NCBI GenBank assembly: GCA_019651095.1
Contig: BOXR01000005.1
Coordinates: forward strand, 4,992 to 68,991
DNA from: Ectothiorhodospiraceae bacterium
GTDB lineage: Bacteria > Pseudomonadota > Gammaproteobacteria > GCA-002705445 > GCA-002716945
Direction of reading: 5' to 3'
Length of the DNA stretch: 64,000 nt
The translations under genes were made by a program, and so were the position numbers. Shown one piece after another: positions 3,404 to 64,000 of the stretch (positions within the stretch are counted from its first letter, which is position 1; each line of letters opens with the position of its first letter). The notes below the pieces were generated by a model. It did no database searches. It was given only the letters and a program-made list of their open reading frames with translations, and was not told the origin of the DNA.

Positions 3404-3439
3404 ATCTCTCTAGTTTTTACTCGAGGACAATAAAAAATC

Positions 3440-5360
3440 TATAAGTGCCATAGAGCTGTAAAGCTATTATGAGCTTGTTGCCAGACTGCACTATATTGAG
3501 AATCTATTATTGTTTCATCAATTTGCTTCTCCTCTGTGCGCAGGTAGCAATGAAGAAATATCGCCTTTTCTGTAACTTTTGACATTAAATTCATAGTAAC
3601 CTGAAAGCTTTTAAATACTTTTTCTCTCTTCATTTTCTGCTCATCACCCATTAGCCCAAACATCGTTGTTACAACATGGCTCCATCAACAGCAGAACCGG
3701 TATTTCCTAATTCAACATTTTCAAAATTTATCAGTGTTATTTATCGGTTCATACCATTTGGACAGATATTTTAAGTTTAAATAAAATTTTGATGTTTTAT
3801 TATGAGTTGAATTTTGTTACCATTCAACCCGGCAATTGTAATTGTTAAATCATCCCTTTTTATCTCGGAGGGTTTTGATATCGCTGCATTGACATGGATG
3901 AAACAATTACACAAACCATTTATACGGAACGATAAATTCTTGCAAACATTTTATCTCATCATGGGTTTTTTCCCATCATTATCAAATCAACCATCCCGAG
4001 AGTACTTTGGCGTGTCAGATATACCCTCCCTCTTTTAATGGTTGATCTCTGAAAAAAAAATTGCATGCCCCCAAATTTATACATCGGTCTCAAATGAGAC
4101 TCTGGTTCTTTTTAATTTTTTTTAAAAATCATAGCCAAAGTCCTATTAACATATGTCTTGGAAAGAATTTTTTATCAAATTTTTATACCAATATTTGTAT
4201 AATTCTTTAAACTTGGAAATTAATATCATTAATGACTTGAAATCTCTCTTATTCATATTTTCATTATAAGCCTTAATTATATCAACAATTTTTAAAAAAC
4301 TTTTCTTTCATATCAAAGGCGGATAATCTTATGTTTTTGTTTAGAACATTAATTACCAACCTTTGTCTAATGCTTTTAACAATCAGTACAATTTTTTTTA
4401 AGCTCATCCTATCATAATCCAAAAAAAATTTCTGAAAAAGCCTTTAATTTTTGCTTTGCCATATTCCTGCATAAATTTGTAGGGTATAAAGCTGACATAA
4501 CTGATCCTCAAATTCAAGAAATTTTTTTCCAAAAGATTTTTTAAGGGAAATTTCCCCCGAATGTGACCATGATTCCGCTGTAAAAAATTGCTTCCCCTCC
4601 AACACCCCAAATTTGGGAAATCCATTACCAAGAGCTTTTCTACCATGACAACTCGGGAGTTCCCCTATGTTGATAACCAAACCATCACCCCGTCCCACAA
4701 AACCCGACTGAACCTCTCTATCATAGAAAATATTTTGTTTATTGCAGATTTCCCTTACTTCTTGAAGATTGCTTTGTCACAGGAAAAATTCCGCCCCCCA
4801 CCTTTAATGGTTCAAAAAGAATTGCGATACTCATCATGATTTTAAAAAATTCTTTTTGGCTTAATTTATTAAATTCAAATCTAAGAGCCGTCCAAAAGGT
4901 CCAAATGGGCATGAGAAGTGTGCGATGTTCCCCATGCCCCATAGTCCCTTCCTAAGTTTTGCATTACTAAAATTTTGGGTTTATCCTATCATGACCTATT
5001 TTCTGCAATTTTAATGCGCCTCAAAAAGATTCTGCCCGGTTCAAAAAAAAACATTTCCCTTCTTAGTTGACATATCTTTTTGCAATTTTTTGTCCAAAAA
5101 GAAATGCATTGGAAGTATGAATCAATTTTGCGACTGTTTTGACTGTTTTGCTTTATGGGGTGAGTGACCCAAGCTTGTAACTGCTAAACCACGGTATCAA
5201 AATACTGCTTTCCCTCAGATCATATAAAATAAATTCCTTCCCCCTTGTAAAGGTAACTTTTCCTATTTAGGTAGGCATGATTTTGCTGGTCATAATCTAC
5301 ATTCTCGCACGAAAAGAGTAATTCTATATCAAATTGTGAATAAAGCTAGCTGTTAATAAA
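3440..5360. other. Roughly 1.9 kb with no long ORF on either strand, only 60-85 aa fragments. Likely decayed gene remnants downstream of ptsI.
   Basis: The six-frame track shows only short overlapping ORFs. Homopolymer-rich sequence. One fragment has a GHGEH motif that could be a metallo-beta-lactamase-fold remnant. Confidence 0.4.
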
Positions 5361-7169: not shown

Positions 7170-7251
7170 GTATACCTCATTTGTTGGTTGAAATTATGTT
7201 TAATAATAAATGAAGATTGATATTTAATCTATAGGGGATATAAATAAAATA

Positions 7252-9019
7252 GTGTGTGGAATTTGTGGAGAATTTAAATTTATCTCAAAGAGTTTTGATA
7301 ATGAAAAGCTCAATAATTTAATGGATTCTATCTCCGCAAGGGGAAATGATTCTCAAGGAAGATACATGGATGATGATGTTTTTCTTGGTCATCACAGACT
7401 TGCAATAATCGATACGAGTAATAAGTCTAATCAGCCAATGCAAGTTGGAAAATATGTAATTGTTTTTAACGGAGTAATATTTAATTATCGTGAGTTGAGA
7501 AGTGCTCTTATTAAAAAGGGGCACTCATTCTCATCTTCTGGTGATACTGAGGTAATTATTCGATCTTATATAGAATATGGCTCTGATTGTGTAAATTACT
7601 TAGACGGAGTATTCGCATTTTGCATTTATGACACAGAAGATAAAAAACTTTTTCTAGCAAGAGATCGTATTGGTATAAAGCCTCTATACTTTCTCCATGA
7701 ATCTGGACAATTGTACTTTTCATCTCATATGAAAGGAATTCTCAAGAATATGGTTAAAAGAAAAGTTAATCCAATTGCACTCAATTACCAATTTACATTG
7801 CATTCAGTCGTGCCAGCACCACACACTATAATCGATAATATTCAGAAATTAGAACCTGGTTATACAATTACAGTTCATAAATCAGGGAGAATAGATAAGA
7901 CTAGATATTTTAATATCGATGAAATTCAGCTATCAAAATATAATACTAATGAAATATATGAAAATATATCTTCACTACTAGCCGCCGCAATTGAAAAAAG
8001 AATTAGTGTTGCTGACGTTCCTGTGGGTATCTTGTTATCAGGTGGCTTAGACTCAAGTCTAATTACTGCGATATCTAAAGAATATAAAAATAACTTAAGT
8101 ACCTACTCCATAGGTTTTGAGACAATAAATAAGGAGGAGGGAAATGAATTCTACTACTCTGATCTAGTTGCTAATGATTTAAAAACATCACATGAAAAGT
8201 ATAGTGTGACTAGCCTTGATTTATTAAACAGTTTAGATGATGTTATCATGAGTATGAGTGAGCCCATGTTTAGTCAGGACTCATCAGCATTTTATTTATT
8301 AGCTAAAAATGTCTCTAAATCAGCCAAGGTAGTACTGAGTGGTCAAGGTGCTGACGAGGTCTTTGGTGGTTATTTCTGGTATGAGAAAATTATGAGGGAA
8401 AAAGACCTTAGTAGTATAGATACTCTCATAAAATATTATTTTGATAGATCATATGACAATTATAAAACAATTATACATAGTGACTATGTCTCTGAAAACT
8501 ATGCATCAAACGACATAGAATCTAGGCTAAAACAAATGGATCCGAGCTTGAGCATTTTAGATAAAAGTTTTCCGCCTAGAGCTCTCCATGTTTATTATTG
8601 ATGATCCGGTAAAAAGAGTAGATAACATGACTATGTCTCATTCTCTTGAGGCTAGAGTTCCGTTTTTAGATATTGATCTCATTAGTTTTATGCTCTCTGT
8701 TAAAAGTGAAAAGAAAATAGAAAATGGCGAAAAATGCTTTTTTAAAAGAGGTCTCTAAAAAATATTTGAACAATAAAATAATTAACAGGAGAAATTCTAC
8801 TTTCCTGTCCCACCACTTAAAATAATTAAAGATAAATTCTTTGACTATTGCAGAAAAACACTGTTATCAGAATCTGCTTTAGAGAGAAATTTATACAACA
8901 CGTCATATATTAATAAAATTCTTGAAAAACCAAATGAACACTTTACAAATCTTAATGGAAATGAGTTGTGGCACTTTACCTTACTAGAAAGATGGTTACA
9001 ACTAAACATTGATCAGTAG
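7252..9019 (+). pseudogene. asnB: Asparagine synthetase (glutamine-hydrolysing) AsnB. The N-terminal 449 aa is intact; the C-terminal third is split by at least 3 frameshifts.
   Basis: Ntn start 'MCGICG', 'HRLAIIDTS', 'SGGLDSS'. After the stop at 8601 the sequence continues as 'DDPVKRVDNMTMSHSLEARVPFLD', then 'KKYLNNKIINRR', then 'TFPVPPLKIIKD...LLERWLQLNIDQ', each in a different frame. Confidence 0.7.
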
Positions 9020-9059: not shown

Positions 9060-9374
9060 ATGTCAGCACTAGATAGAATAAAAAAACAAGTAGAAGAAAG
9101 CCCTGTAATACTCTACATGAAAGGTACACCTCAAATGCCAATGTGTGGATTTTCTGCAAGAACGGTTGAAGCTTTAAAAAGTTGTGGTAAAGAGTTCGCT
9201 TATGTAAATGTAATTTTAGATTCAGAGATAATGCAAGAATTACCAAACTTTGCTGACTGGCCAACATTCCCTCAGTTATACATCAAAGGAGAGCTTATTG
9301 GGGGATGTGATATTACACTGGATCTTCATCAATCTGGTGAACTTCAAAAAATGATTGATGATGCAGTTAGCTAA
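9060..9374 (+). CDS. grxD: Monothiol glutaredoxin (Grx4 family).
   Basis: 'CGFS' active site, 104 aa, typical Grx4 length and motifs (WPTFPQLYIKGELIGG). Confidence 0.85.
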   Translation: MSALDRIKKQVEESPVILYMKGTPQMPMCGFSARTVEALKSCGKEFAYVNVILDSEIMQELPNFADWPTFPQLYIKGELIGGCDITLDLHQSGELQKMIDDAVS

Positions 9375-9998
9375 CCAGCTGGTGTATTAATTGCATGAAT
9401 AATGCCCCAATAATCGAAGATATTTACCTTAGATATTGACTGAACATTAAGTTTCGCGTAAGCATTAAATTCTGAAAATGGAAAGTATGGCCTCCAGCCA
9501 AGATATTTACTTACAGGCATGAGTCCTTTTTCTAAAATTTTCATAAATTTACTATCAGTCTCAAAACTAAAATGATTTACCAAATAAATGTCACCATTTG
9601 GTTTACAGACTCTTTTCATTTCTTTGATTAATAGGTTCGGATTCTGCGTCACCGAAACCACATACATCCAACAACTTTATCAAAAGAATTATCCTCAAAT
9701 GTAAGTTGCTCCCATTCATCATAATTACATTCTTATTTTGAAGATTATGTTTTCTTATGTTTTTTTTTGCCTTTTCAAGCATATCAGGAGATATATCAAT
9801 TCCAGTTACTTCTGTTTCCATCGGATAATATTTGTAAGAGGTGCCCGTTCCTATTCCTATTTCAAGAACCTTGTCAGTTGGAGTGCACTCCATCATGCTC
9901 ACAAGCTTTTTTTGGCCCGGTCTAAAGATTTGACCAAATGTGTAATCATAAAATCCTGAGACTCGTTTATATGATTTTATTATAGACTTATCATCCAA
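9371..9998 (-). pseudogene. Class I SAM-dependent methyltransferase split by one frameshift (9603..9998 plus 9371..9667).
   Basis: SAM motif 'VLEIGIGTGTS' in the upstream piece. The downstream piece continues an MTase fold. The two pieces overlap in different frames around 9603-9667. Confidence 0.55.
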
Positions 9999-10033
9999 TA
10001 TGCTATCCTAAAGTATAGAATTAATAGGCCTAA

Positions 10034-10378: not shown

Positions 10379-10556
10379 GCGGAGCTTCAGATTACATAAT
10401 CATAGTTATACTTATCGCAACACTATACTCATGGCTAATATACGGATATATTTTTAAACAAACTCTTGATTGCACAACTTTTATGGGTTTATCAATATCA
10501 TTCCTTTACAGCATGATAATCGGCTTCATGCTGATATTAGTTCTCTCCCTTCTTGT

Positions 10557-11875
10557 ATGAAAGTTCATATTCTAGGTATTTCCGGAACCTTCATGTCAGG
10601 TATAGCTATTCTTGCCAAAAAAAAGGGATATGAAGTAACAGGCTCTGATACCTCTTGTACGATCCAATTAAGTCTATTTTAGAGAAAGAAAATATATCTG
10701 TGATTAAAGGACATAAAATCAAAGATATCAAAGATAAAGATTTAATTATAATCGGTAATGTAATGTCACGAGGAAACCCGATAATCGAGTATATCTTAAA
10801 AAACAATATAAATTACATCTCAGGACCACAATGGTTGTATGACAATATCCTTAAACATAAAAAAGTAATAGCTGTAAGTGGCACGCATGGAAAAACTACA
10901 ACTACTGCGATGATTGTTCATATTATGAAAAAAAATAAAATGAACCCGAGTTATTTAATTGGCGGATCTCCAAAAGGTAATTTTAAATCAGTTTCTCTTA
11001 CTAGCTCAAAATATTTTGTTATTGAAGCAGACGAATATGACACTGCGTTTTTTGATAAAAGATCTAAATTTATCCATTACAATCCCTTTCTAGCTGTTAT
11101 AAATAATATTGAATATGATCATGCTGATATTTTTGAAAATATAGATGAAATAATAAAATCTTTTAGTCATATGATTAGACTTATACCATCTGACGGTACA
11201 ATAATTATTAATAAAAATGATCATAATATTAAAAAATTACTTCAAAAAGGATATTGGTCGAAGTTAATAACTGTAGATTCAAAAAAATCGTCAGGGGATT
11301 TTAATTTGATAAAGAAAAAACAATATATGCTTAAATTCAATAATAAAAACTTTTTATTGCCAGTGAATATCATAGGAAAGCATAACTACATAAATGCTAT
11401 AACTGCAATTGCAGCATGCAGAGAACTCAAGGTTCCAATAAATACTCAAATTAAGGCTCTATCAAGTTTTAAAGGCGTCAGTAAAAGAACAGATCTAGTT
11501 TGTGAGATTGATGGAATTAAAGTTTTTGATGATTTTGCTCATCATCCAACTGCCATTAAATCTTCGATTAACTCAATTAAGGACACATTCACAGGGAAAA
11601 GGCTTTTAACTATATTCGTACCTGGCTCAAATTCGATGAGACTTGGGGTACATAATGATCAACTTGTACCATCGCTGAAAAAATCAGATAGAGCGCTAGT
11701 TTTAACCAGATTCAAGCCATTAAAGAGATTAATGGGAAATAACATTAAAATAAATGTTATTGAAACTGAAGCTCAAATAAGAGAATATCTCGACAAGGAA
11801 AATAATTTCGATATTGTTCTCGTGCTTTCAAACAGGAATACTGAGAACATATTACGATACATTAAAAATGGATAG
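10557..11875 (+). pseudogene. mpl: UDP-N-acetylmuramate:L-alanyl-gamma-D-glutamyl-meso-DAP ligase (murein peptide ligase Mpl). One frameshift after codon ~33.
   Basis: 'MKVHILGISGTFMSGIAILAKKKGYEVTGSD' in frame 1, then 'YDPIKSILEKE...VSGTHGKTTTT' in frame 2. The junction 'acctcttgtacgat' is explained by loss of one T from a TTT run. Confidence 0.7.
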
Positions 11876-21418: not shown

Positions 21419-21530
21419 AATCTATTATAATTTGACTTGATATACCCCTATATATTCGCTATAACTCGATAAGTTTTGAGGAAGTATATATGATAATTTT
21501 AAAATATGCAAAATACATGGATGTAAAGAG

Positions 21531-22443
21531 ATGACCAAATATGCTCTAGAAATTGAACAACTTAATAAAACTTATAGGAATGGTGTAAAGGCCCTAAAAG
21601 ACATAAATCTCAATGTCGAGGACGGAGATTTATTTGCATTTCTTGGTCCAAATGGGGCTGGTAAGTCTACAGTTATCGGAATTATTACAACACTTGTCAA
21701 CATCACATCAGGTACAGTAAAAGTATATGGAAAAGACATTCGTCAATTTCCTGAAGCAACAAAAAAAATGATTGGGGTTGTCCCACAAGAGTATAATCTT
21801 AATCAGTTTATTCCGATTCAAGAGACAATGATTAATATTGGTGGATATTTCGGTTTAACAAAAAAACAATCTATGAATAAAACTCAAGAGCTTTTTGAAG
21901 ACCTTGGTATATGGCATAAGAGAGAATGTACACCGAGAGAATTATCTGGCGGGATGAAAAGAAGACTACTTATAGCCAGAGCTTTAATACATAGTCCCAA
22001 ACTTCTAATTTTAGATGAGCCTACTGCAGGAGTTGATACGGAACTGAGACTTACAATGTGGGACTTTTTCAAAAAAATAAATAATGATGGTGTCACAATT
22101 ATATTAACAACTCATTATCTAGAAGAAGGCAGAGCGTTTATGTAAAAATTTATCAATCGTTCATAAAGGAGAAATTGTTCAGAACTCACCAATGAGAGAT
22201 ATAATCGCTTCAAAGAGAAAGCATACCTATATCATACGAACAGATTCAACTATTAATGATATAAATGCATTTGGTGACAATATTATAAGTATAGATAATA
22301 ATTCATATGAATTGACTGTAGATAATAAAGTTTCAATTTCGGAAATAATTAATTCATTCAATAACAACAAAATAAATGTAATTGAAATACTAAGTAAACG
22401 AAATAAACTAGAGGAACTATTTATGGAGCTTACTCAAGAATGA
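21531..22443 (+). pseudogene. ABC-2-type transporter ATP-binding protein. One frameshift near 22133 splits it into 204-aa and 83-aa pieces.
   Basis: Walker A 'GPNGAGKST', signature 'LSGGMKRR', Walker B 'ILDEPTAGVD'. The C-terminal domain continues as 'RLCKNLSIVHKGEIV' in another frame. Confidence 0.65.
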
Positions 22444-23213
22444 TAAAACAGCTATACATAACACAACTGACAACGATCTTCAGAAAAGAATTCTTTCGAT
22501 GGTCACGTATTTGGATACAGACTATCTTACCATCAGTAATTACAATTTTTTTATACATAACTATTTTTGGGAATTTCATTGGATCACGTTTGGGAGATAT
22601 CAGTGGGCTGCCTTATATACAATTCATACTGCCAGGTTTGATCATAATGCCTATCATTTCAAATTCATACATGAACGTCGTTGGTTCTTTTTATAGTGGT
22701 AGGTTTCAAAAAAGTGTTGAGGAATTATTTGTATCCCCACTTTCAAGTCACGTAATTTTGATCGGGTATGTATTGGGTGGTGTATCAAGAGCTTTTGTAG
22801 TGGGCTTCGCGGTATATCTAGTCTCACTAAGTTTCACAAATATACCAATACATAATGTATATCTTGCTATTTTTCTAACACTTCTTGTTAGTTTTTTATT
22901 TTCCATCCTTGGATTTATTAATGCTGTTTATGCAAAAAGTTTTGATGATATAAATATTATTCCAACGTTTGTTTTAACTCCGCTTACATATCTAGGTGGA
23001 ACCTTCTACTCAATATATAACCTTCCTGAAGCTTGGCAAACAGTATCATTGTTTAATCCTATAGCTTATATGGTAAGCGCATTTAGGTATGCATTTATTG
23101 GTATAGAAGAAATGAATACATTTAATGCGATAGTAATGATGTTCATATTAATCTTTTTCATGTATTCTCTAGCTATATACCTTTTAAATAGAGGTATTGG
23201 AGTAAAAAACTAA
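22440..23213 (+). CDS. ABC-2 family transporter permease.
   Basis: 257 aa with 6 TM helices. Translationally coupled to the upstream ATPase. Confidence 0.7.
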   Translation: MIKQLYITQLTTIFRKEFFRWSRIWIQTILPSVITIFLYITIFGNFIGSRLGDISGLPYIQFILPGLIIMPIISNSYMNVVGSFYSGRFQKSVEELFVSPLSSHVILIGYVLGGVSRAFVVGFAVYLVSLSFTNIPIHNVYLAIFLTLLVSFLFSILGFINAVYAKSFDDINIIPTFVLTPLTYLGGTFYSIYNLPEAWQTVSLFNPIAYMVSAFRYAFIGIEEMNTFNAIVMMFILIFFMYSLAIYLLNRGIGVKN

Positions 23214-23335
23214 CTCTCACGAGGTTGGGAAAGTCAGTGAATACATAATCTGACACTGCCCCCGCAACGGTGAACAACAGTCCGAATGCCAACGAGGTGA
23301 GACCTACTTTAGCGGTGGTGCTATGAAAGAAATCT
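23210..23335 (+). promoter_or_regulatory. Cobalamin (B12) riboswitch candidate in the leader of a btuB-like gene.
   Basis: GC-rich island in an AT-rich background: 'GGGAAAGTCAGTGAATACATAATCTGACACTGCCCCCGCAACGGTGAACAACAGTCCGAATGCC...GGTGGTGC' resembles the E. coli btuB leader core (GGGAAtCCAGTG..GAAtCTG..ACTGCC..GCAaCGGTaA). Sits ~200 nt upstream of a TonB-dependent receptor. Confidence 0.6.
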
Positions 23336-23535
23336 TGATCATATAGTCATATAAACTTTTACTTAAACGCTTTACTGTTTTTTAGCAGATGCATTGTCGT
23401 ATCTTATTTAAGTAATAATGACCTATTCAAATATGAAGTACGTTGTGCATTTAATTCATGCGCTTTGGGTAATGAATATATAGCTTTAGGATGACGCTGT
23501 TGCCCTAAATTTTTTAATCTAGATGAGGATATATT

Positions 23536-25308
23536 ATGAACTTTAGAAAAATTATTTTATTAAACGTCCTATTTACATTTTTCAGTCTCACACAGGCAAG
23601 TGAAACATTAAACCCAATTGTAGTAGGCAATTCAATCTCACCAATAGATATCCATACTTCGCCTGCATCTATGGAAGTGTTCACTAGCTCAGATATAGAA
23701 AGAGAGGCTTCGCTGACATGCAAGAATTATTGAGCTCTATAAGCTCTATAAATATAACTTCTAACGGAGGAATTGGACAATTAACATCTATTTTTACAAG
23801 AGGCACTGAGAGTAATCATACAAAGATTATACTTGATGGGGTTGAGCTAAATCCAGGTACACTTGCTCTAGCACCAATACAAAACATTTCAATTGACTCT
23901 ATTGACAGGATAGAAATTATAAAAGGATCATCATCAGCGCTTCATGGAGCTAGAACTATTGGTGGTATTATCAACATAAAGACTAAAGAGAATTCAAATT
24001 CAATAAAAATATCGACTGGATCATGGTCGACCAATACTACATCGTTGAGTCAAAATTATAATCTAAATGGATTCAAGATGAATATTAATGCTAACAGAAA
24101 AGAATCGAAATCTAAGACTGCGGGTCGTTATTCTAATAAAAGGCATGCATATAATACAGATAACATAAGTATCGGTTTGAGCAAGGAGATAAATGATTAT
24201 GTTTTTCTACAAAGCTATACAACTCGAATGGAAATACTCAATACGACAGCTTTGGTACTAATGAGAATCAGGACCGTGATGACTACTTTTACAACTTCGG
24301 GCTTAAGAAATTTATTAATGAAGACATTTTTGAAATAAAACTTGTAGGTTCTCAAAATAGGATTATCCAGAAAAAGGTGGGTTCAAACGACTTCACGGAT
24401 ACTCTCAGGGATATTTATGATTTTTCCTACACAAAAGTAGGGAGTAATGTTGTACAAAAAATTGGATTTATTTATACAAAAGAGCATATGAGTGAACTTG
24501 TATATGGTGGAACAGCCTATGAAAGTCGATTCACTGCACAACACAATAATAAAGAATATTTTTATCAGAATGAAATGTCATATCCATCATATCGATTGAA
24601 CTTCGGGGCAAGACATACAGATCACTCACAAGCTGGACATTTTACTTCTGGGAACTTTGGAGTATCTTTACTTTCAGATAATAATGTATATTCATTTAAT
24701 ATTACCAAATCCTATAGACCAGCAGATGCAACAGACCTTTATGCGACTGATGGATCTGGTGATGCAACACATAAACCTGAAGAGTCGTTCTCTTATGAAT
24801 TTGGAGTCAAAAGATATGTAAATGAGAATACATTTATCAGAGGAACGGCTTTTAAAACGAGATTGAAAAATCTAATTGAGGCGGACATTAATTCCCAGAT
24901 ATATCTATCTGATGCATTGATAACGGGTTTAGAAATGAGAGTACAATCAAACTACGTCCTTTCATATATGATATCGGTTACACATATATGAATCCAGAAG
25001 ATACAAAAAATAATCAACCCTTAACAAAACGAAGCAAGCATAAGCTGAATGCAGATGTAATTTATAATTTTAAACCAAATAGTTCTCTGAGATTTAATAT
25101 TTTAGCTGAAGGTACTAGAAAAGCGTCAGCATTTGCAGATATAAATTTAGGCTCATATTATATAGCCAATGTAAACTATAGGACACGACTTGATACAGGT
25201 ACAATCTCTTTAAGCATGAAGAATATTTTCGATAGACCTTACAGGACGTCTCATGGATACGATACTCTGGATAGGTCACTCTTTGTTACATATACGTTAG
25301 ATTATTGA
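23536..25308 (+). pseudogene. btuB: TonB-dependent outer-membrane receptor, putatively BtuB-like, in 4 pieces with at least 3 frameshifts.
   Basis: Signal peptide plus TonB box (23536..), plug domain 'ILDGVELNPG...IEIIKGSSSALHGARTIGGIINIKTK', beta-barrel fragments, C-terminal 'RSLFVTYTLDY'. Total span ~590 codons. Confidence 0.65.
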
Positions 25309-27184: not shown

Positions 27185-30040
27185 TTATTGACATGCCTCA
27201 CAATCTGGATCATCTATTAGACACTGTTTAACTTCATCATCATTTGACTTAACAGCATTTAAGTTTGAGCCGCTAGTATCTGACGTGCTTTTCTCTACAT
27301 GAGTCGCACCCAACGAGCGTAGGTAATATGTAGTTTTAAGCCCTCTTATCCAAGCAAGCTTATATGCGCTATCAAGTTTTTTACCATCAGAATCAGGTAT
27401 ATATAAATTTAGTGATTGTGATTGATCGATCCACTTTTGTCTTCGAGCGGCTGCTTCAACCAACCATCTAGCATCTATCTCAAAGCATGTTGAATAGATA
27501 GCTTTTAAATCGTCTGGAACTCGATTGATAGGCTGTAGTTGTCCATCAAAATATTTCAGATCTTTTATCATAACTTCATCCCACAAATCGCGTGATTTCA
27601 AATCATTAATTAAGTAAGGATTGATCACAGTAAATTCACCCGATAGATTAGATTTAACATATAAGTTTTGATAAGTTGGCTCTATCGATTGTGAGACACC
27701 ACAAATATTTGAAATAGTTGCAGTAGGAGCTATAGCAAGTGTATTAGAATTTCTCATGCCATTGGCTTTTATTTTGTCTCTTAGTTCATCCCATTTAAGA
27801 CTTTCATCTAGATTAACATCTAAATATTTACCACGAATCTTCTTAAGTTTCTTAAGACTATCTATCGGCAGTATTCCCTGGCTCCATAATGAACCATCAA
27901 ATGATTCATATGCACCTCGCTCTTTTGCAAGTTCCATTGATGCTTCGATTGCAAAGTAACTAACGTACTCCATACTCTTATCAGCAAAATCAACTGCCTC
28001 TTCGGATTCATATGGAACACGAATTTTATAAAGAGCATCCTGGAATCCCATAATGCCCATGCCAACTGGTCGATGCTTTAGGTTTGAATTTTTTGCTTTA
28101 TCAACACTGTAATAATTATATTCAATAACATTATCAAGCATTCTCATTGCAGTAGAGATTGTTGTCTTTAATTTTTTAGTATTTATTTTTCCATCGTCAG
28201 TGATGTGAGCGGCTAAATTAACAGAGCCTAAATTGCATACTGCTATTTCGTCTTTAGATGTATTGAGTGTTATCTCAGTACACAGATTAGAGGAATGAAC
28301 TACGCCTTTGTGCTGTTGTGGCGATCTAATATTGCATGGGTCTTTGAATGTAATCCATGGGTGCCCTGTCTCAAAGAGCATGCTCAAGATTTTTCTCCAT
28401 ATATCTACTGCATTAACAGTTTTAAAGTTTTTTATGCCACCAGTTTTAGCTAAATCTTCATATTCGGTATATTTTTCCTCAAATTCTAGTCCGTACAAAT
28501 CATGTAAATCAGGTGTATCTGAAGGTGAGAACAGTGTCCATTCTTCATTAGCGTGAACACGTTTCATAAATAGATCTGGAATCCAATTAGCAGTGTTCAT
28601 GTCATGAGTTCTTCTTCTCTCATCACCTGTATTTTTTCTAAGCTCTAGAAACTGTTCTATGTCTAAGTGCCAAGTTTCTAAATAAGCGCACATCGCACCT
28701 TTTCTTTTACCGCCTTGATTGACAGCTACAGCAGTGTCATTAGCAACTTTAAGAAATGGAATGACTCCCTGACTTTTTCCGTTAGTGCCTTCGATGTAAG
28801 AACCAAGAGCCCTCACCTGTGACCAGTCGTTTCCTAAACCGCCTGCAAACTTTGAAAGCATAGCATCGTCGCTTATTCCTTCAAATATTCCTCGTAGATC
28901 ATCGGGGATAGTAGAAAGATAGCATGATGACAATTGAGGTTTCAGTGTAGCTGAGTTAAACAACGTAGGAGTACTAGACATAAAATCAAACGAGGACAAT
29001 AATTTATAAAATTCGATTGTTCTTGCTTCACGGTTATCTTCATTGATTGCTAGACCCATTGCTACTCTCATAAAGAAAGCCTGAGACAATTCAAATCTTG
29101 TTTCGTTATGATGAATGAAGTATCTGTCATAAAGTGTTTGAAGCCCAAGATAGGTAAACTGCATATCTCTTGTTAGGTCAATATTCTTTGCCAGTAGCTC
29201 GATATCATAATTGAGTAATTCAGGATCGAGATGCTTGAGTTCAACGCCTTTTTTAATATAACTAGTAAAATATTCAGAGTATGATTTATTCATTGCATTC
29301 ATACTTAGATCATTTATGTCAAGCCCAAGAAATCCATAAGCCTCTTCCGCCATAGAATTGGATAATAATCTTGCGAGGACATAAGAATAGTTAGGATCTT
29401 TTTCAATGAGTGGTCGTACAGAAATTAAAATAGAGTCAGAGAGATCAGATTTTTTTATCCCATCATAAATATTTTTATCAATTGTCTCAAAAATTAATTC
29501 TTCCGAGACATCTTTAATATCTAAACAGCTCTCAGAAATGAGATTTCTTAGTTTGGTAAAATCGATTGGTGTTGATGAGCCATCATCGAGTATCATATTT
29601 TTCGATATCGGCATGTCATCTGTTTGTTCAACGCCAAGCTTTCTTGCTTTTGCTCTGTCTTCTCTATATATAACGTATGCCCTTGCAACATCTTGGTAGC
29701 CAGCGCGCATAATTCCCTAACTCAACTTGATCTTGTATATCTTCGATATGGACAACACCTCCGTTTGGAAATCTTCTTCTTATGGTTTGATCAACTTTAT
29801 CAGTAAGATTTTCAACTTCATTGTGAATTCTGGATGATGCAGCAGCACTGCTGCCTTCGACACTAAGAAAGCCTTGGTCATAGCTACAACAATCTTATGC
29901 GGATCGTAAGCTGTAACCTTTCCGTTTCTTCTCATCACTCTATATCTGCCTGGCACTGGCTCAACATGCAACGGTTCTCAGCTACTGTGGCGTTTAAAGG
30001 CGTTTCTATATTAAGTTCTTCTACTTTTTTTGACATAATT
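27185..30040 (-). CDS. nrdA: Class Ia ribonucleotide reductase alpha subunit NrdA. The 841-aa body is intact (27185..29710). The first N-terminal ATP-cone (~110 codons, 29710..30040) is split over 3 frames.
   Basis: Body with RNR large-subunit motifs. Upstream, 'MSKKVEELNIETPL..', 'VMRRNGKVTAYDPHKIVVAMTKA' and 'VVHIEDIQDQVELGNYA' are ATP-cone sequence in three different frames, ending just before 'MRAGYQDVARAYVIYRED'. Confidence 0.8.
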
Positions 30041-30202: not shown

Positions 30203-31569
30203 TTACATTAGAAAAGTTGCAATTCCCAGTAAAGATACGAACCCGACAACATCTGTAATAGTTGTCAAGATCACACCTCCGGCGAGGGCAGGATCGATAT
30301 CTAGTTTCTCTAAAATAAGTGGAAGACTGACCCCGCTGATAGCGCCAATGATAAGATTGATCATAATAGCAGCTGCAATTACACCTCCGAGAAAGACACT
30401 GTCAAACCAAAAATAGACAATGGCTGCAATAACGCCAGACCAAATTATTCCATTCAGTAATCCGATTGCAGATTCTTTAAGGATTAAAAGTTTTGAGTTA
30501 GATGAACCTATTTGATCAAGTGCTTGTGCCCTGATAACGAGTGCAAGACTTTGACTTCCAGCTATACCTCCCATACTAGCAACAATTGGCATCAATATCG
30601 CTAGTGCTACAACTTTCTCAATCGTTGCTTCAAAATTCCAATAGCAGCAGCTGCAAGCAGTGCTGTTAAAAAATTAGCACCGAGCCAAAGTGTACGTCTT
30701 TTAGTACTTTGTATGACTGGTGCAAATATATCATCGTCTTTTTTTAGACCCGCCATATTCAATACACTTTCATCAACCTCTTCTCTGATGACATCAACAA
30801 CATCATCGACTGTGATCCTACCAAGTAAGAACCCTTGACTATCTACTACGGCTGCTGAGACAAGATCGGCATTTTCAAATCTTCTCGATACTTCATGTTC
30901 TCCAAGATCTGGATCTATTGGATCATCATCCTTTTGCATGATTTGAAAAAAGTATTTTGATGGATCTGCCACGAGAACATCTTTTAGAGACACAAAACCA
31001 TGATACATATTAATTCTGTCAGTCACAAAAATTTTATCAGTTTGATCTGGCAAGCTTTTCATACGTCTTAGATAGTGAAGAAGGACATCAACTGTAACAT
31101 TGCTTCTAATTGTAATTGTATCAGTATTCATTAGCCCGCCTGCTGTGCCATCTTCAAAGGACAATACCTTTTCAAGCCTTTCTTGATTTTGCTTAGTTAA
31201 ACTTTTTAATGCTTTTCTTGTTAAGTGATCAGGAAGTGATTGAATGATATCTGCCAAATCATCGGTATCTAATTTCTCAGCTATTTTGACAAGCCCTTCT
31301 GTTCCATCTCTATCGATAAGTTCATCGATAAGATACTCTCTTACTTCATCATTGAGCTCAGCAAGAGTCTCACCTTTATTTTCATCACTTACTAATGTCC
31401 AGAGAAGATCTCTTCTGTTTCTTGGCGTACTTTCAATTACATCTGCAATCTCAGATGGATAGAGAGAATTTAATAAATTTTTAGCTTGGATGACAGCACC
31501 GCTATCAAGAACTTCTGAGAGTTGATCGAGAGTGACAGTATTGTCTTTGTGAATGCTTTCTGCAGGCAT
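30203..31569 (-). pseudogene. mgtE: Magnesium transporter MgtE split by one frameshift between the cytosolic N/CBS domains (320 aa) and the TM domain (130 aa).
   Basis: N-terminal ORF carries MgtE_N and CBS sequence. The downstream ORF 'MPIVASMGGIAGSQS...' is the MgtE TM domain in another frame. Junction at ~30600. Confidence 0.65.
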
Positions 31570-31622
31570 TTTAACTGACCTCTCTTGTTTAGTTGATTTA
31601 TTACATATTCCTGCCTATAAGA

Positions 31623-35711: not shown

Positions 35712-36934
35712 TTACCATTTTTTTTCTAGTTTTTTTCTCAAGTATATGGCAGTAAGATTTAGAAGAATTAAGAACCCAAGCAGGACCATTATGGCAGCTG
35801 ATGTTCTCTCAGTAAATGCTCTCTCGGGACTATCAGCCCACAAATAAATCTGTACTGGTAATGCTGTAGAGGCATCCATTGGTCCACCAGGAGCATCAAC
35901 AACAAATGCGACCATGCCGATCATAAGTAAAGGCGCAGTTTCACCAATAGCTTGTGCAATACCAATTATGGTACCTGTTAAAATCCCAGGCATGGCAAGC
36001 GGAAGTGTAAATCCAAAAATTGTTTGAACTTTACTCGCACCGAGACCTATCGCCGCTTCCTCTATTGACGGGGACTGATTTGATCGCAGCTCTGGCTGCA
36101 ATAACTATTGTTGGCAGTGTCATTAATGCAAGGGTTAATCCTCCTACTAGAGGTGCGGACCTGGGAAGCTCGAAGAAGTTTAAAAAATTGCTAGCCCTAG
36201 AAGTCCAAAAACTATTGACGGTACAGCAGCAAGATTATTAATATTCGTTTCTATAATGTCAGAGAATCTGTTTTTAGTGGCTATTTTTTCAAGGTACACA
36301 GCTGACATAACAGCAATTGGGAATGAAACTAGAAATGCGATGATAATCGCGTATAACGAACCCAAGATTGCGCCCTTTATTCCTGCCATCTCTGGTTCTC
36401 TACTGTCAGCAGAGGAGAATAAATATTTGTTTGAATGTAATTCAACTAAATTTTTGACTGTAGAATATCTATTAATTTCATCTGATATTCATCAATCCTG
36501 CCAGCAGTATCTCCTTGTCGTTTCACAGTCCCTTTTATGTACATATCTAAATCAGAAGATGCAAGAAACCAATAGTAACCATTGAGATCTTTACCTTCAT
36601 TGTTTAGCAGAAGGTCTTTAAACTCATATCTTGCTCCTTTGCTCAAAAGAGACAGAGCGGCTCTTTTTTCAGCCCTACTTTGTAAATCTGGAAACATTTT
36701 CAGAAAACTTTTATTTAGTTCAGATCTTGGATTTAATGTTTTCTTATCTAAGTTAGCTGGGATATCTAGCTGTACTGCAACATAAGTCTGTTTAAAAGCA
36801 CTGATGCCCGATGAGAAAATATTATACAAAAGAATTACAAGAAAGCTTATTGCAACTGTAACTGCAACTTTTCCGTACATTTTAAATCTCTTTTCAGATT
36901 TATTTCTTGCGGTAATACTATTCATATTGCTCAC
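35712..36934 (-). pseudogene. pstA: Phosphate ABC transporter permease PstA (long form) shattered into at least 3 ORFs.
   Basis: Fragments 36446..36934 (N-terminal extension), 36180..36389 ('AVPSIVFGLLG') and 35712..36101 ('GETAPLLMIG..') are all PstA in different frames. Confidence 0.7.
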
Positions 36935-38283
36935 GGTATCTTTTTACTATCGCTAGCGATATTACATTTAAAATGAGTGTGATGAAGAATAATACAAATG
37001 CCAGCGCAAAAGCCGAGAGTGTTTTAGGACTGTCAAACTCTTGATCACCCGTCAGTAATCCAACGATTTGCACTGTTACTGTACTCACACTATCAAATGG
37101 ATTAAATGTCATATTTGCAGCAAAGCCTGCTGCCATAACCACAATCATCGTCTCTCCAATGGCGGAGAGAAAGCAAGTAGAAAACTACCTACGATTCCAT
37201 GAAATGACGCTGGTATTATCACTTGCTTAGTCGTTTCAGATATGGTTGCCCCCATTGCTAGAGAACCCTCTTTGAGGGATTGTGGCACTGCTGTTAAAGC
37301 ATCATCTGTTAGGGATGCAACAAAAGGTATGATCATAATACCCACCCATAACTGTCCCAGCTACTATGGCACTCTCTGAGCTCATATTTGTGAATGATAA
37401 AAATGTTCCCATATCTCTGAAGAATGGAGCAACAGTTATCACAGCAAAGAAACCGTATACAACAGTTGGAATTCCTGCAAGTATCTCAATTATAGGTTTT
37501 GCATAGCTCCTTACTTTATCCGACGCATATTGAGAAAGATAAATAGCAGAGTACATTCCAATTGACCTGCGACTGCCATGGCGATGAGAGAGATTAGCAA
37601 CGTCCCAACAAAACTGGTACTGCCCCAAAACTACCTGATGATCCAACTTGATCAGCTCTAATTGCCATTTGAGGACTCCAGTGTGTTCCAAATAAAAATC
37701 AAAAACATTAACTGATTCGAAAAATCTTAGTGTCTCGAAAGCAGCGAGAGCACTATGCCAATAGTTACAAAAATAGCAAATACAGCTGATGCTCTCATCA
37801 CGAGAATAACTATTCGTTCAATGAAGTCTCTCGCTTTGAATGTTACCTCAACAAATTTTAATGAATGTTTAAAAAGTATTAGTGTCAACATTAGAACAAC
37901 AGCAAACTTTAGAATCTGGTTACTACTTTGGAGAGATTGATAATGTTCAACAGCAGGTATAAAACCTACATGATCAATTATTCTGTCGGTGGTGCCCTCT
38001 ACGTAAGCAATCACCCCTTCAGTATAGAATTTTACCAAGCCATCATCTGTTACATCAGAAAAAAATCCTTCAGCGTTATGTTGCTTATCATATTTACTAT
38101 AAACGACCAGAAGATTAAAAGAATGATGGCAGGAACTATTGTCATAAATGCCGAATACAATCCATGATAGTGTGGTTGTGAGTGTAAGATATTGAATTCA
38201 GCTAATGCACGAGCTTTACTAGAGTTTAGTATAAAACCATATACTGCAAGCCCAAATATTAATACAACTAAAAAACTAATCAT
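36918..38283 (-). pseudogene. pstC: Phosphate ABC transporter permease PstC (with N-terminal extension) shattered into at least 5 ORFs.
   Basis: Fragments 38050..38283, 37727..38038, 37302..37691 ('ILAGIPTVVYGFF'), 37145..37345 and 36918..37148 are collinear with PstC but in alternating frames. Confidence 0.65.
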
Positions 38284-57808: not shown

Positions 57809-57944
57809 ATAATCTTCAAATATAAGAACAATATTATCACCAATATTGATTGTCCTGTTTTTTTTATGACTAATTAATTCTTTTTTATTGAGTCTCTCTT
57901 AGAATCATATTCTTCAAGTGAGAGAAGGTCTTTAGGCTCTAATT

Positions 57945-59272
57945 TCATGCTCTTATTCCATACGCTTTCTTAATTAAACTGATCGGATGCTCAGGCTCTT
58001 GTATGTTCCCTAGTGAATTTTCAATATGATGAGCGGCCAATGAGCAGTCACTTGTAAAACTATCAAAATTGGCATCTTTAAATGACTTGGTTATAGGTCT
58101 AGCAATTTTGATAGCAATATCATGTGTTTCTAGCTTTACTCCGTATGTTCCATCATGACCAGAACACCTTTCGATTGCATTGACGGTAGTACCAGGAACT
58201 AGTTCAAGAATTTTTTTTGTTAGCATGCCAAAGTTTTGTACTCTCTGATGGCATGCAACTTGATACGATATGTTGCCAAGCTCTGTATTAAAATCTGTTT
58301 TCAATATACCCTCATCATTCAACATATTTAAAAATTCAAAGGGATCTCTAAATGATTTGGAGACTTTCAATAAATCTTGATTATCAGGGAAAAGAAGTGG
58401 CAGCTCTTGTTTATACATCAAAACGCACGATGGAATTGGCGCAATAATCAGATATCCTAGATCAGTGAATTTTTGAATTTAGGCAGGTTCTTTTCCATCA
58501 TCTTACCAACTTCCTCGATGTTTCCTAATTCTAACTTTGGCATCCCGCAACAGTTGTCGTCGGTTATCATTTCAACAGTTACATCATTATGTTTTAGAAT
58601 ATCATAGAAGTCTTTGATCACTCCGGGCTCGTTAAAGTTATGATAGCAAGTAGTAAAAATTGCTACCTTGAATTTTGAAGTATTAGATTGATTGGTTAAG
58701 TTGAGCTGTTTCGCAGTTTTTGATACAAATTTAGGCAACTTTGCGTTTCTATGGACTCCAAACTTCTCCAAAAGTTTTCTGAAAACTTTATTATTGTTAA
58801 AGAAATTTACAAATCCAGAGACAAAATACCTAGAGAACATTTTGCCTAGCATATCTGTAGAGGCAAGAACTTTGTCACGAAAAGATATTTTTTTCTTTGA
58901 ATTTTTAATTGCCTTACCTCTTAGCATTAGGTGAGGAAAATCAATCTCCCATTCATGTGGTGGAACATATGGACACTTTGTCATGAAACATAAGTCACAC
59001 AAATAGCAATGATCTACAACTGAATCGAAGTCAGTATATGAGACTCCGTCAACTTCAAAAGTTTCAGATTCATCAATGAGATCAAATAAAGTAGGGAATG
59101 AATTACATAAACTCACACATCTCCTGCAACCATGACAAGCGTCTGCGACTCGTCGTAGCTCTTCCTCATATTTCTCTTCATTTAAGAAATCGGGGTTTTT
59201 CCAATCTATAATATGTCTGGTTGGTTTTTCAAGCCCACCTTCCATGCTGGGTTTTAAATTTGCGTTGTCCAT
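57945..59272 (-). pseudogene. Heterodisulfide-reductase-related Fe-S protein (2x4Fe-4S ferredoxin motifs plus two CCG cysteine-rich domains), split into two ORFs near 58440.
   Basis: 'CHGCRRCVSLC' and 'CYLCDLCFMTKCP' ferredoxin motifs. 'TTCYHNF...DDNCCGMP' and 'VACHQR...ERCSGHDG' CCG domains. 58457..59272 and 57945..58421 are collinear but not in one frame. Confidence 0.6.
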
Positions 59273-59296
59273 ATTTCCCTGTTTTTTAGTTAAATC

Positions 59297-59323: not shown

Positions 59324-59335
59324 ATAGATATTTTT

Positions 59336-59872: not shown

Positions 59873-60886
59873 TTGAACAGACTATTATTTCAATTCTATA
59901 AAAAAATAGCATTTAAAGTTGATCCAGAAAAAGCTCATGATATATCGCTCTCTTTTCTTGAGTTTATCTACAAAAGCTTTCTTGGAAAGATATTTCATAA
60001 AAGATTTGTAAAAAATGGTATCAAACAATTTGATGTTCTTTTCGATAACCCTGTGGGACTAGCTGCGGGGTTTGACAAAAATGCTGACTATCTTAATTTT
60101 ATCACAAATATTGGATTTGGTTTTGTTGAAGTTGGTACCTTAACTCCAAAGGCCCAAGCTGGGAACCCAAAGCCAAGAGTTTTTAGATTAGCCAAGGATG
60201 AGGCGATAATTAATCATCTCGGTTTTAATAATAAGGGTATTGACTATGGAATTTCTCGCATAAAAGAATTTAATAGAAATATACCCATAGGTGTCAATAT
60301 AGGTAAAAATGCCTCGACAGATGTAAAAGATGCCTTTCGTGATTATGAGTATTGTCTGAGAAAAGCTTATTCAGTAGCAGACTATATCACGTTAAATATT
60401 TCCTCTCCCAATACAGAGAATTTGAGAGACCTACAGAAAGGAGAAAAGATAAGTAGCTTCCTACATTCCATTAAAACACTTCACGACAATTTAAAAAAAG
60501 TTTATAAAAAACATACACCACTAGTTGTTAAAATTGCTCCTGATGTGACTGATGAAATAATTTTTGATTTATCAAATCTAGTAAATGAGTATGATATAGA
60601 TGGAGTGATATGTACTAACACAACAATAGATAAATCTTGTCTGAGTGATCAATTTAAGGCTTTACAAGGTGGTTTAAGTGGTAAACCCCTTTTCCAAAAA
60701 TCAAATGATGTGCTCACTAAAATTTCTAATGTTCTGGGTAAAGAGAGGACGATCATTGGTGTAGGTGGTATCGATTCATATGAATCAGCAAATGAGAAAT
60801 TTAGATTAGGTGCAAATTTGCTTCAGCTTTATACAGGTCTTGTATACAAAGGGCCAAAAGTTATCGAGGATATATTACGATACTAG
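59873..60886 (+). CDS. pyrD: Dihydroorotate dehydrogenase (quinone), class 2.
   Basis: 'GFGFVEVGTLTP', 'NISSPNT', 'GVGGIDS'. 337 aa with an N-terminal membrane-association helix. Confidence 0.9.
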   Translation: MNRLLFQFYKKIAFKVDPEKAHDISLSFLEFIYKSFLGKIFHKRFVKNGIKQFDVLFDNPVGLAAGFDKNADYLNFITNIGFGFVEVGTLTPKAQAGNPKPRVFRLAKDEAIINHLGFNNKGIDYGISRIKEFNRNIPIGVNIGKNASTDVKDAFRDYEYCLRKAYSVADYITLNISSPNTENLRDLQKGEKISSFLHSIKTLHDNLKKVYKKHTPLVVKIAPDVTDEIIFDLSNLVNEYDIDGVICTNTTIDKSCLSDQFKALQGGLSGKPLFQKSNDVLTKISNVLGKERTIIGVGGIDSYESANEKFRLGANLLQLYTGLVYKGPKVIEDILRY

Positions 60887-61179
60887 TTTGATTCAGGCTT
60901 CCAAGTGCCGTATGCTTCTTCAGCATTTTGTGGTGCTTTTTGGGCTTCACCTTCGAGAGCACTTGTTTGTTGATCATAAACATATTGAGTAAACTCAATG
61001 AGCTGTTTCAAGATATCGTCTTTATCTTTTTTGGGGATTTCGGCAGTTGCTACTATTGAGCCAACTACCGCAGATAAATACTGAGATGCAAGAATTGGAT
61101 CTTCATTTTTTGGCTCATAATCAACAAGAACTTTTTGTAAGCCTTTGAGTAATTCTGGTTTTAGTACGATTTCAGTCAT
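60883..61179 (-). CDS. Hypothetical small protein.
   Basis: 98 aa, acidic. No secure motif. Confidence 0.3.
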   Translation of the reverse strand: MTEIVLKPELLKGLQKVLVDYEPKNEDPILASQYLSAVVGSIVATAEIPKKDKDDILKQLIEFTQYVYDQQTSALEGEAQKAPQNAEEAYGTWKPESN

Positions 61180-61214
61180 AAATATTCACACAAGTTATAT
61201 TATAATATGTATGT

Positions 61215-61910
61215 ATGCAAGATAAATCTACTCTATCAGTAAAAACCTTCGATGTTGGCCCTATGCTAAATATTGTTTATCTTATTTGGGACAACACTAC
61301 AAAAGATGCGGCTATAGTAGATCCCGCCTGGGATTTGACAGAAGTGCTAAATTTTACGACACAAAATGGATTAAAATTGAGAAAAATTCTTTTAACTCAC
61401 AGTCATCATGATCACGTCAATTCTATAGATACACTACTAGAAAAATATGACTTACCAATCTACATTAATAAATTTGAGGCAAGTTTTTGGAAGAAGAAAT
61501 ATGATAATTTAATAATAACTGGCTCCAATGACACCTTTTCTCTTGGAAAATCTTCTGTATCAACAATTCACACACCTGGGCACACTCCTGGCTCTTGCTG
61601 TTACTTATTTGATAAAAACCTCATTGCAGGAGATACATTGTTTGTTTTCGGATGTGGAAGATGTGATCTTCACGGAGGAAACCCTGAAGAAATGTACAAT
61701 TCATTGAAAAACTTAAAGAATAACCTCGACCAAAATACAATTATAATGCCTGGGCATAACTACTCAATAAAAAGACAGTCAACTATCGGAGAGGAGATCA
61801 CTGGTAATCCATTTTTCAGTTTTGATAATTTAAAGGATTTTGTTCAATACAGAATGCATGATCATGATAAAACTAGACAGGAGCCATACGCTCCAATTAC
61901 TCATGGCTAA
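61215..61910 (+). CDS. MBL-fold metallo-hydrolase (glyoxalase II-like).
   Basis: 'HSHHDH', 'PGHTPGS', 'GDTLF', 'GCGR' motifs. 231 aa. Confidence 0.75.
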   Translation: MQDKSTLSVKTFDVGPMLNIVYLIWDNTTKDAAIVDPAWDLTEVLNFTTQNGLKLRKILLTHSHHDHVNSIDTLLEKYDLPIYINKFEASFWKKKYDNLIITGSNDTFSLGKSSVSTIHTPGHTPGSCCYLFDKNLIAGDTLFVFGCGRCDLHGGNPEEMYNSLKNLKNNLDQNTIIMPGHNYSIKRQSTIGEEITGNPFFSFDNLKDFVQYRMHDHDKTRQEPYAPITHG

Positions 61911-61911
61911 A

Positions 61912-62382
61912 TTATTTCAGATTGTATCTTAGTTTCTGTATCAATTTCCTAACCAATACTTTATCGATCGCATTATTTGTGATTTTTTCTTGTTCGCTCG
62001 TAATTTGCATGCGTGATTCATTAAAATCATAGGAACCAGAGGCTTTCAAAGTCCCTGTCACGCTATTATTTTCTGAGCTTATGATTTCATAGTCTAATGA
62101 TTTGCTAATTTCATATTCATCTACTCTCCCTGAAGAATTTACAGAAAGCTGTCTCTTTCGACTTGATATAGAATTAATTTTAACTACAGGATATGTATTG
62201 TAATCTTGAATCTGTAAGATCACTGATGAACCAAGTTTTTGTGAGAGCATATTTGAAATCGATGTATGGCCGTTAGAAATAATTATTATGTTTTCTAAAC
62301 CATCAACATTCATTGATCCCCTAAGTTGATAACCGCATGATGATATCATCGTCATAATTACAAAAAGATAAAGAATTCTCAT
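61912..62382 (-). CDS. lptE: LPS-assembly lipoprotein LptE.
   Basis: Lipobox 'ISSCGYQLRG'. 156 aa. Immediately downstream of leuS. Confidence 0.75.
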   Translation of the reverse strand: MRILYLFVIMTMISSCGYQLRGSMNVDGLENIIIISNGHTSISNMLSQKLGSSVILQIQDYNTYPVVKINSISSRKRQLSVNSSGRVDEYEISKSLDYEIISSENNSVTGTLKASGSYDFNESRMQITSEQEKITNNAIDKVLVRKLIQKLRYNLK

Positions 62383-64000
62383 TTGATCACAAAGTTTATA
62401 AGCTTATTAGGTACATAAATAGTCTTTAGGATATCAGATTCAGCTAGGTACTGTTTTGTTTTTTGATCTTCTAGTGCAATTTTCAAAACTTCCTCCTCAT
62501 TGAGATCAGATTTTGCATATATTCTGCTCCTGAGTTTACCATTAATTTGTACTATTATTTGAACTTCTTGATCAACATCTACTCCCTCAATTTTATCTGG
62601 CCATTCAGGGTTACTAGCTTTTTCGGCTTTTATTTCAGACAAAATAGTAAAACAGATATGTGGAGTAATAGGATATAGCAATTTAGCCATAGTAGAGATA
62701 CATATTTTCGCGGATTCATGCGATATTGACTTATCATCAATAGATCTAGACAAACTATTGAAAAACTCCATTACAGCAGCTATGGCTGTGTTATATGATT
62801 TTCTTTTGAAAAGATCTGTTGAGACTTTATCAATTGTCTCATTATGTTTAATTAAGATTTTATTATCTTTATCTTTTGGAACATCGTAGGAATTACGTAT
62901 CAGGTATGAAAGCTTCCAAAATCTTTTTAAAAATTTATAGCCTCCCTCAATTGCTGAGTCAGACCATTCGAGGTTTTGTTCAGGAGGAGCTGCAAATAGA
63001 ATGAAAAGTCTTATTGTATCGGCACCATATTTTTTTATTATATCGTCTGGATCAATCGTATTGCCTTTTGATTTTGACATTTTTGCTCCATCTTTAAGTA
63101 CCATCCCTTGTGACAGTAGAGATACGAAGGGCTCATCATCATCTACTAAACCTTCATCTCTTAAAAGTTTATAAAAGAACCTTGCATACAACAGATGTAA
63201 TATTGCATGCTCTATACCACCTATATATTGATCAACAGGTAGCCATGATTTGAACTTTTTGTTAAACATTTCTTTTTCATTATGCGGATCAAGAAATCTT
63301 AAGAAATACCAAGATGATTCAAAGAATGTATCAAATGTATCAGTCTCTCTTACAGCTTTTTTGCCTGTTAGAGGACAAGTAATATTTTTCCATTCATTAT
63401 TTCTATCTAACGGGTTTCCTTCACCATCTAATTTAATGTCTTTGGGTAACTTTACGGGTAGATCTTTCTCTGGAATAGGATAAACTGTGCCATCCTCATG
63501 ATAATATACAGGTATAGGACACCCCCAATATCTTTGTCTAGATATACCCCAATCTCTAAGCCTATATGTGACTACCTCCTCCCCGAGGTTATTATTCTGA
63601 AAAATTTGTTATCTTTTCTTTAGCAATATCTGATTGTAAACCGTTAAATTGAGAAGAATTAATAAGGATGCCTTTTTTCGACATTGGGAAGATTGTTCAG
63701 TCTTTTTGTCGTCAATTACTTTGATAATTTCAAAATCGAATTTTTTCGCAAAATCAAAATCTCGAGGGTCATGCGCGGGACACCCATTACAACACCTGTA
63801 CCGTAATTATCAAGAACATAGTTGGCAATCCATATCGGAATTTTTTTTGAGTAATTGATGTAAACAATATTTACCTGTGAATACGCCGTCTTTCTCCACT
63901 TTAGCAGAAGTTTCTTCAGAAAGTTTTTGTTTTTGATACTTAGTTATGAACTTTTTAATACTTTTATCTTTTTGTGATAGGTCTGTAGCTAGATCATGAT
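62379..64000 (-). CDS. leuS: Leucyl-tRNA synthetase, C-terminal ~540 codons. It continues past the window edge. One frameshift at a homopolymer at ~63597-63605.
   Basis: 'WLPVDQYIGGIEHAILHLLY', 'KMSKSKGN'. Upstream of 63269 the frame stays open ('LRDWGISRQRYWGCPIPV...TDTFDTFFESSWY') until a stop, and 'LINSSQFNGLQSDIAKEKITNF' continues in another frame. The two frames are reconciled by removing one A from the A5 run. Confidence 0.85.

Follow-up and report, generated by a model that had tools for sequence, protein, structure and literature searches.

The frame break in leuS of an uncultured marine gammaproteobacterium is an assembly artefact

Introduction

A gene as indispensable as leuS, when it changes reading frame at a short run of A, raises the question of whether the break is an artefact of the assembly or a genuine lesion that is rescued by slippage. 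This is the situation in the window (the whole stretch of 64,000 nucleotides analysed here), which comes from an uncultured planktonic marine gammaproteobacterium of approximately 34% G+C. The initial annotation left the two possibilities undecided and proposed leuS as the test case for the frameshifts of the contig. It was a good choice, and the outcome is an artefact: the break at 63600-63604 is almost certainly a consensus error of the assembly, one of six in 63600-63857, and slippage rescue is not supported.

The leuS gene and its frame break

The following features were used to locate the break.

62379-64000, minus strand: partial leuS (leucine-tRNA ligase), 3' end inside the window and 5' part past the window end, based on translations and named homologues
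62379-63599, minus strand: indel-free part of leuS, the C-terminal ~406 codons including the KMSKS motif, based on translation and assembly comparison
63600-63604, minus strand: flagged site, A5 on the plus strand (coding-strand T5), where contigs L001, L088 and L090 (described below) have A7, two bases more
61912-62382, minus strand: lptE, the downstream neighbour, with a 4-base overlap with the leuS stop; intact at 156 aa, as in short-read contigs

The gene had been correctly named. Close homologues returned by protein search are annotated as leucyl-tRNA synthetase (LeuRS) and carry the domains PF00133, PF13603 and PF08264, and the window translation on the minus strand contains the KMSKS motif. 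In a bacterial-type, class Ia LeuRS, PF13603 is the CP1 editing domain, PF08264 the anticodon-binding domain and tRNA-synt_1 the catalytic core. The HIGH motif lies past the window end and is found in the 97% identical LeuRS of L088. Gene order is lnt-leuS-lptE in L001, L003 and L088, and lptE is likewise directly downstream of leuS in the window.

The leuS stop codon occupies 62379-62381, and the stop-to-stop open frame spans 62379-63608 (409 codons by translation), in keeping with the earlier description of a frame open from 62379 to about 63600. Translation also bears out that 'SDIAKEKITNF' is read in one frame and 'QNNNLGEEVVTYRLRDWG' in the next. A/T runs of at least five bases are so frequent in the window (8.8 per kb at 34% G+C) that closeness to one means little alone; the indel is located inside the A5 run by the alignment to relatives, which is identical up to both run edges. 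Hence, the frame does change at an A5 homopolymer, as had been proposed, although the run lies at 63600-63604, three bases from the 63597-63601 originally given. The accompanying explanation, one extra A, is probably wrong, as in-frame relatives carry two more bases rather than one fewer. Removing one A from the A5 run would restore the leuS frame, which has the same effect on frame as a loss of two bases but is a different event. Because all in-frame relatives are longer by two at this site, the sequence comparison shows the window to be two bases short, and the event was likely A7 to A5 (-2) rather than A4 to A5 (+1).

Comparison with independent assemblies

Contigs for comparison were obtained from protein-search relatives and from a DNA-pattern scan of metagenome contigs. 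Those closest to the window were as follows.

L001: 398-kb ENA contig (ERZ28548058) with a record name ending in '_pilon'; 98.0% nucleotide identity to the window over 5.6 kb
L088: ENA OSEY01002503, short-read SPAdes contig NODE_2503; 97.3% nucleotide identity over 6.6 kb
L090: LULE01005511; 95.8% nucleotide identity
L086 and L087: short-read contigs (SPAdes NODE and megahit-style k141 names); 94% and 83% identity
L004: Tara Oceans scaffold; 99.2% identity with 0 gaps over 60830-63379, stopping before the flagged site

The flagged site is covered by three independent assemblies from this population (L001, L088 and L090, 95.8-98.0% identical and including at least one short-read SPAdes assembly), and all carry A7: their sequence is AAATTTTTTTCAG (T7), that of the window AAATTTTTCAG. 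The MGnify protein P0122 spans the site in frame and reads KITNFFQNNN, and L088 encodes an uninterrupted LeuRS of 805 residues that reads KITNFFQNNNLGEEVV. Distant relatives have a spacing of seven codons between KIT and LGEEV, compared with six codons and one base in the window, and in four of them (P0019, P0023, P0003 and L002) the seven-codon spacing is kept without a homopolymer. For two relatives at the species level, L006 and L007, the match to the query is a single segment (residues 1-322 and 2-322, respectively). Among species-representative genomes the closest LeuRS was 78% identical, and the species of the window has no representative there.

The initial annotation described a single shift. 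A frame break at the A5 run does exist, but five further disruptions were missed, all upstream of the flagged site within 260 bases (63673-63857), so that the correct leuS reading switches among all three frames between 63600 and 63857 in the window translation. The six frame-breaking indels within 63600-63857, all on the minus strand, are:

63600-63604: A7 to A5, net -2, relative to L001, L088 and L090
63673-63678: T6 on the plus strand (A6 coding), a 5-base run extended to 6, net +1, relative to L001, L086, L087 and L088
63697/63698: two bases absent outside a homopolymer, net -2, where aligned relatives have TGTG, TGCG or TTGC
63776/63777: one base absent, net -1, with CCC on the coding strand compared with CCCC in L086 and CCCT in L001 (alignment)
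63841-63848: T8 on the plus strand (A8 coding), a 9-base run reduced to 8, net -1, relative to L001, L086, L087 and L088
63857: a single G instead of the GG (coding-strand CC) of aligned relatives, net -1

None of the six was present in the independent same-population assemblies. L001 and L088, the two that reach further upstream, agree with each other and differ from the window at each of the six, and L086 and L087 side with them at five, which are all the sites that they reach. Half of the indels fall within A/T runs of 5-9 bases, the longer of which are under-called (9 to 8 and 7 to 5); the other three sites (63697/98, 63776/77 and 63857) have no A/T run of at least five bases, and two of the six indels lie outside homopolymers altogether. 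Filling the gaps from L001 turned the window leuS into a continuous LeuRS segment, and the gene corrected in this way closely matches the 805-aa LeuRS of L088. In the corrected frame, window and L001 differ by a small number of substitutions, nine synonymous and two non-synonymous, three of which fall in the multiply shifted stretch. As these are mostly synonymous, they indicate, at the level of sequence, that leuS is under purifying selection in the corrected frame. Because only one assembly has these indels and an intact LeuRS is encoded in the same population, the break is an artefact rather than a biological feature.

Exact-sequence look-ups of two frame-truncated window ORFs (leuS, 296 aa; nrdA, 841 aa) returned no record, and that of the intact window lactamase-B protein returned only the Tara short-read contigs L004 and L005, both of which end approximately 220 bases short of the flagged site. 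That near-identical, gapless sequence (99.2%) is present in Tara Oceans assemblies from seawater indicates a population that is planktonic and free-living.

Broken genes elsewhere in the window and in relatives

ORF tiling and Pfam scans identified at least nine other window genes broken in the manner of leuS. Where several pieces of a gene could be named, they corresponded to consecutive parts of a single Pfam model or to consecutive domains of a single type of protein. The affected regions are:

3400-5360: ornithine carbamoyltransferase (OTCase) fragment within a shredded stretch
7228-9019: asnB, in three pieces
9371-10007: methyltransferase, in two pieces, only one of which has a Pfam match
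10470-11875: Mur ligase, split
21480-22443: ABC ATPase, split
23339-25308: TonB-dependent receptor, split over several frames
27185-29894: nrdA, split
30203-31614: mgtE, split
36180-38197: pstA/C, split
57945-59296: CCG-domain protein, split

Nearer to leuS, three further indels are private to the window relative to L088 and/or L001: T7 to T6 at 57881, which shortens a DUF3501 gene at its N-terminus; T6 to T5 at 58470, which splits the CCG-domain Fe-S protein; and an additional base in an intergenic T run at 59331. Between 59331 and 63600, comparison with L001 and L088 found no indel that is private to the window. The indels are therefore clustered, with approximately 4.3 kb free of them followed by six in 260 bases.

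The relatives are broken at other places. L001 has frameshifts where the window stays in frame (A6 compared with A5 at window position 63255, as well as interruptions of lptE and of the lactamase-B gene), and a second '_pilon' contig, L003 (ENA ERZ28548066, ~76% identity), is broken at yet other sites. As inherited or programmed shifts would be common to all assemblies, breaks that differ between them point to errors. Many genes are split in L001 and L003, including leuS (in three pieces), lnt, DHO dehydrogenase and lactamase-B, and protein databases built from these contigs contain truncated LeuRS fragments (e.g., P0002 and P0006).

Two stretches of the window, 1-1950 and 3400-5360, have no long ORF in any frame, no rRNA and no tRNA. 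The latter has the look of genes broken up by closely spaced indel errors, since part of an aspartate/ornithine carbamoyltransferase (81 aa; 3439-3684, minus strand) is encoded within it; the former has an AT skew of +0.18. Rfam and tRNA scans for RNA genes in ORF-poor stretches found only a cobalamin riboswitch (AdoCbl-II, 23211-23299, plus strand; 52 bits, over the Rfam gathering score). It is located directly upstream of the TonB-dependent receptor gene (Plug domain; 23339-25308, plus strand), which is probably btuB-like. The window also contains nine homopolymers of nine bases and none of ten or more, in 64 kb at 66% A+T; the lack of longer runs may reflect their compression by the basecaller or the consensus.

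Residual long-read errors as the likely source

Long-read assemblies are known for leftover homopolymer-length errors and gene-fragmenting indels (PMC8812927, PMC12007338). The window resembles residual errors of this kind (nanopore, PacBio CLR) in its assembly-private indels and the many split genes of the contig, in the presence of half the leuS indels in A/T runs with the longer runs under-called, and in the differing breaks of two '_pilon' contigs from the same clade. It departs from them in that its errors occur in patches rather than evenly spread, and in the two leuS indels that lie outside homopolymers. The latter fit generic long-read indel error, not a pure homopolymer model. We infer the platform, sequencing technology and polishing history of the window assembly. 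The contig would be a long-read draft partly corrected with short reads, in which patches of indels stayed uncorrected and a run of seven A/T would have been called as five at 63600-63604. Patchy polishing or low coverage may explain the clustering. The leuS gene carried by the organism would then be ordinary, intact and read in a single frame, with no recoding mechanism.

Alternative explanations

A genuine frameshift could in principle be rescued if RNA polymerase slipped on the A/T run, or if tRNA-Phe made a +1 slip on U-UUU-U in the ribosome, whereby AAU UUU UCA would be read as AAU UUU (U)CAG. The flagged indel does lie inside an A/T homopolymer in an AT-rich genome (8.8 A/T runs of at least five bases per kb), and re-pairing of UUU on U5 in the +1 frame is formally possible from the sequence. 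Nonetheless, the runs at which productive transcriptional slippage has been described in bacteria comprise about nine A or T (PMC5009743), and slippage becomes exponentially more frequent as runs lengthen (PMC5574713), whereas the flagged run has five bases; moreover, a transcriptome-wide study found no reading frame restored by slippage (PMC5574713). Rescue on the flagged run would also leave five further disruptions within 260 bases, three of them (63697/98, 63776/77 and 63857) without a slippery run, and the junction zones of other broken genes at 22123-22145 and 36918-36943 contain no homopolymer at all. The shift occurs in no relative, even those 96-98% identical, so it is not fixed in the lineage and there is nothing conserved that could be 'programmed'. 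Rescue at poly(A) tracts has been proposed for Buchnera and Blochmannia (as cited in PMC5009743), and PMC5574713 tested it across the transcriptome. These symbionts share with the window an AT-rich genome and an apparent frameshift that falls in an A/T homopolymer, in a gene that the cell needs. They are obligate endosymbionts, however, whereas the window organism belongs to a free-living planktonic lineage, its run is five bases long compared with nine or so or more, and its shift is unfixed in the population and accompanied by non-homopolymer indels. The likeness to programmed +1 frameshifting of the prfB type is similarly partial: a +1 shift would restore the leuS frame and the P-site codon could re-pair in the +1 frame, but relatives read through the site in a single frame without conserving it, the A-site codon is the sense codon UCA rather than a stop, and the shift has no apparent regulatory logic and five more shifts upstream. 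Rescue of either kind is the least probable of the readings considered here and close to negligible.

It is also very unlikely that leuS is a true pseudogene of this strain, whether inactivated in a genome-wide burst, like the genes of a symbiont newly restricted to its host, or tolerated through a second functional leuS elsewhere. Many genes in the window are interrupted, as expected of such a burst, and only the window is in view, with the rest of the genome, where a second copy might lie, outside it. However, six indels to about five substitutions in 260 bases is nothing like a natural mutation spectrum, most of the substitutions are synonymous once the frame is corrected, and the genes affected include the essential, single-copy leuS and nrdA. 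In addition, near-identical gapless sequence (99.2%) is found in Tara Oceans seawater, in a free-living planktonic population with intact genes, and the '_pilon' contigs of the clade (L001 at 98% and L003 at ~76%) break at different sites. Less likely still is a real strain or cell line with genuine indels (a hypermutator or decaying lineage) that obtains its LeuRS by low-level slippage or from a second copy. Consensus error thus remains our explanation of the frame break.

A natural split LeuRS, suggested by C-terminal ORFs of 409-417 aa (P0001 and P0002), was considered and rejected. P0002 derives from a '_pilon' contig with frameshifts of its own, and P0001 comes after an in-frame TGA in a Tara contig, at a codon that is GGA in the sister MAG. 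The contig in question, L002 (Tara megahit contig k127_804941), has this TGA at ~331-333 in place of the codon for the conserved Gly of the LeuRS motif FNGL; GGA is present in its sister, the Tara MAG contig L006. The TGA looks like an error of one base, or a polymorphism, in an assembly of short reads; as a result, gene callers report a 409-aa 'C-terminal LeuRS'.

Implications

The leuS frame break is an artefact and no biological feature of this planktonic gammaproteobacterium. Its significance is for quality control only: the window holds patches of uncorrected indels, and calls of pseudogenes, split genes or recoding made from it are unsafe unless checked against an independent assembly. 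Other frameshift-based findings on the contig should be discounted likewise.
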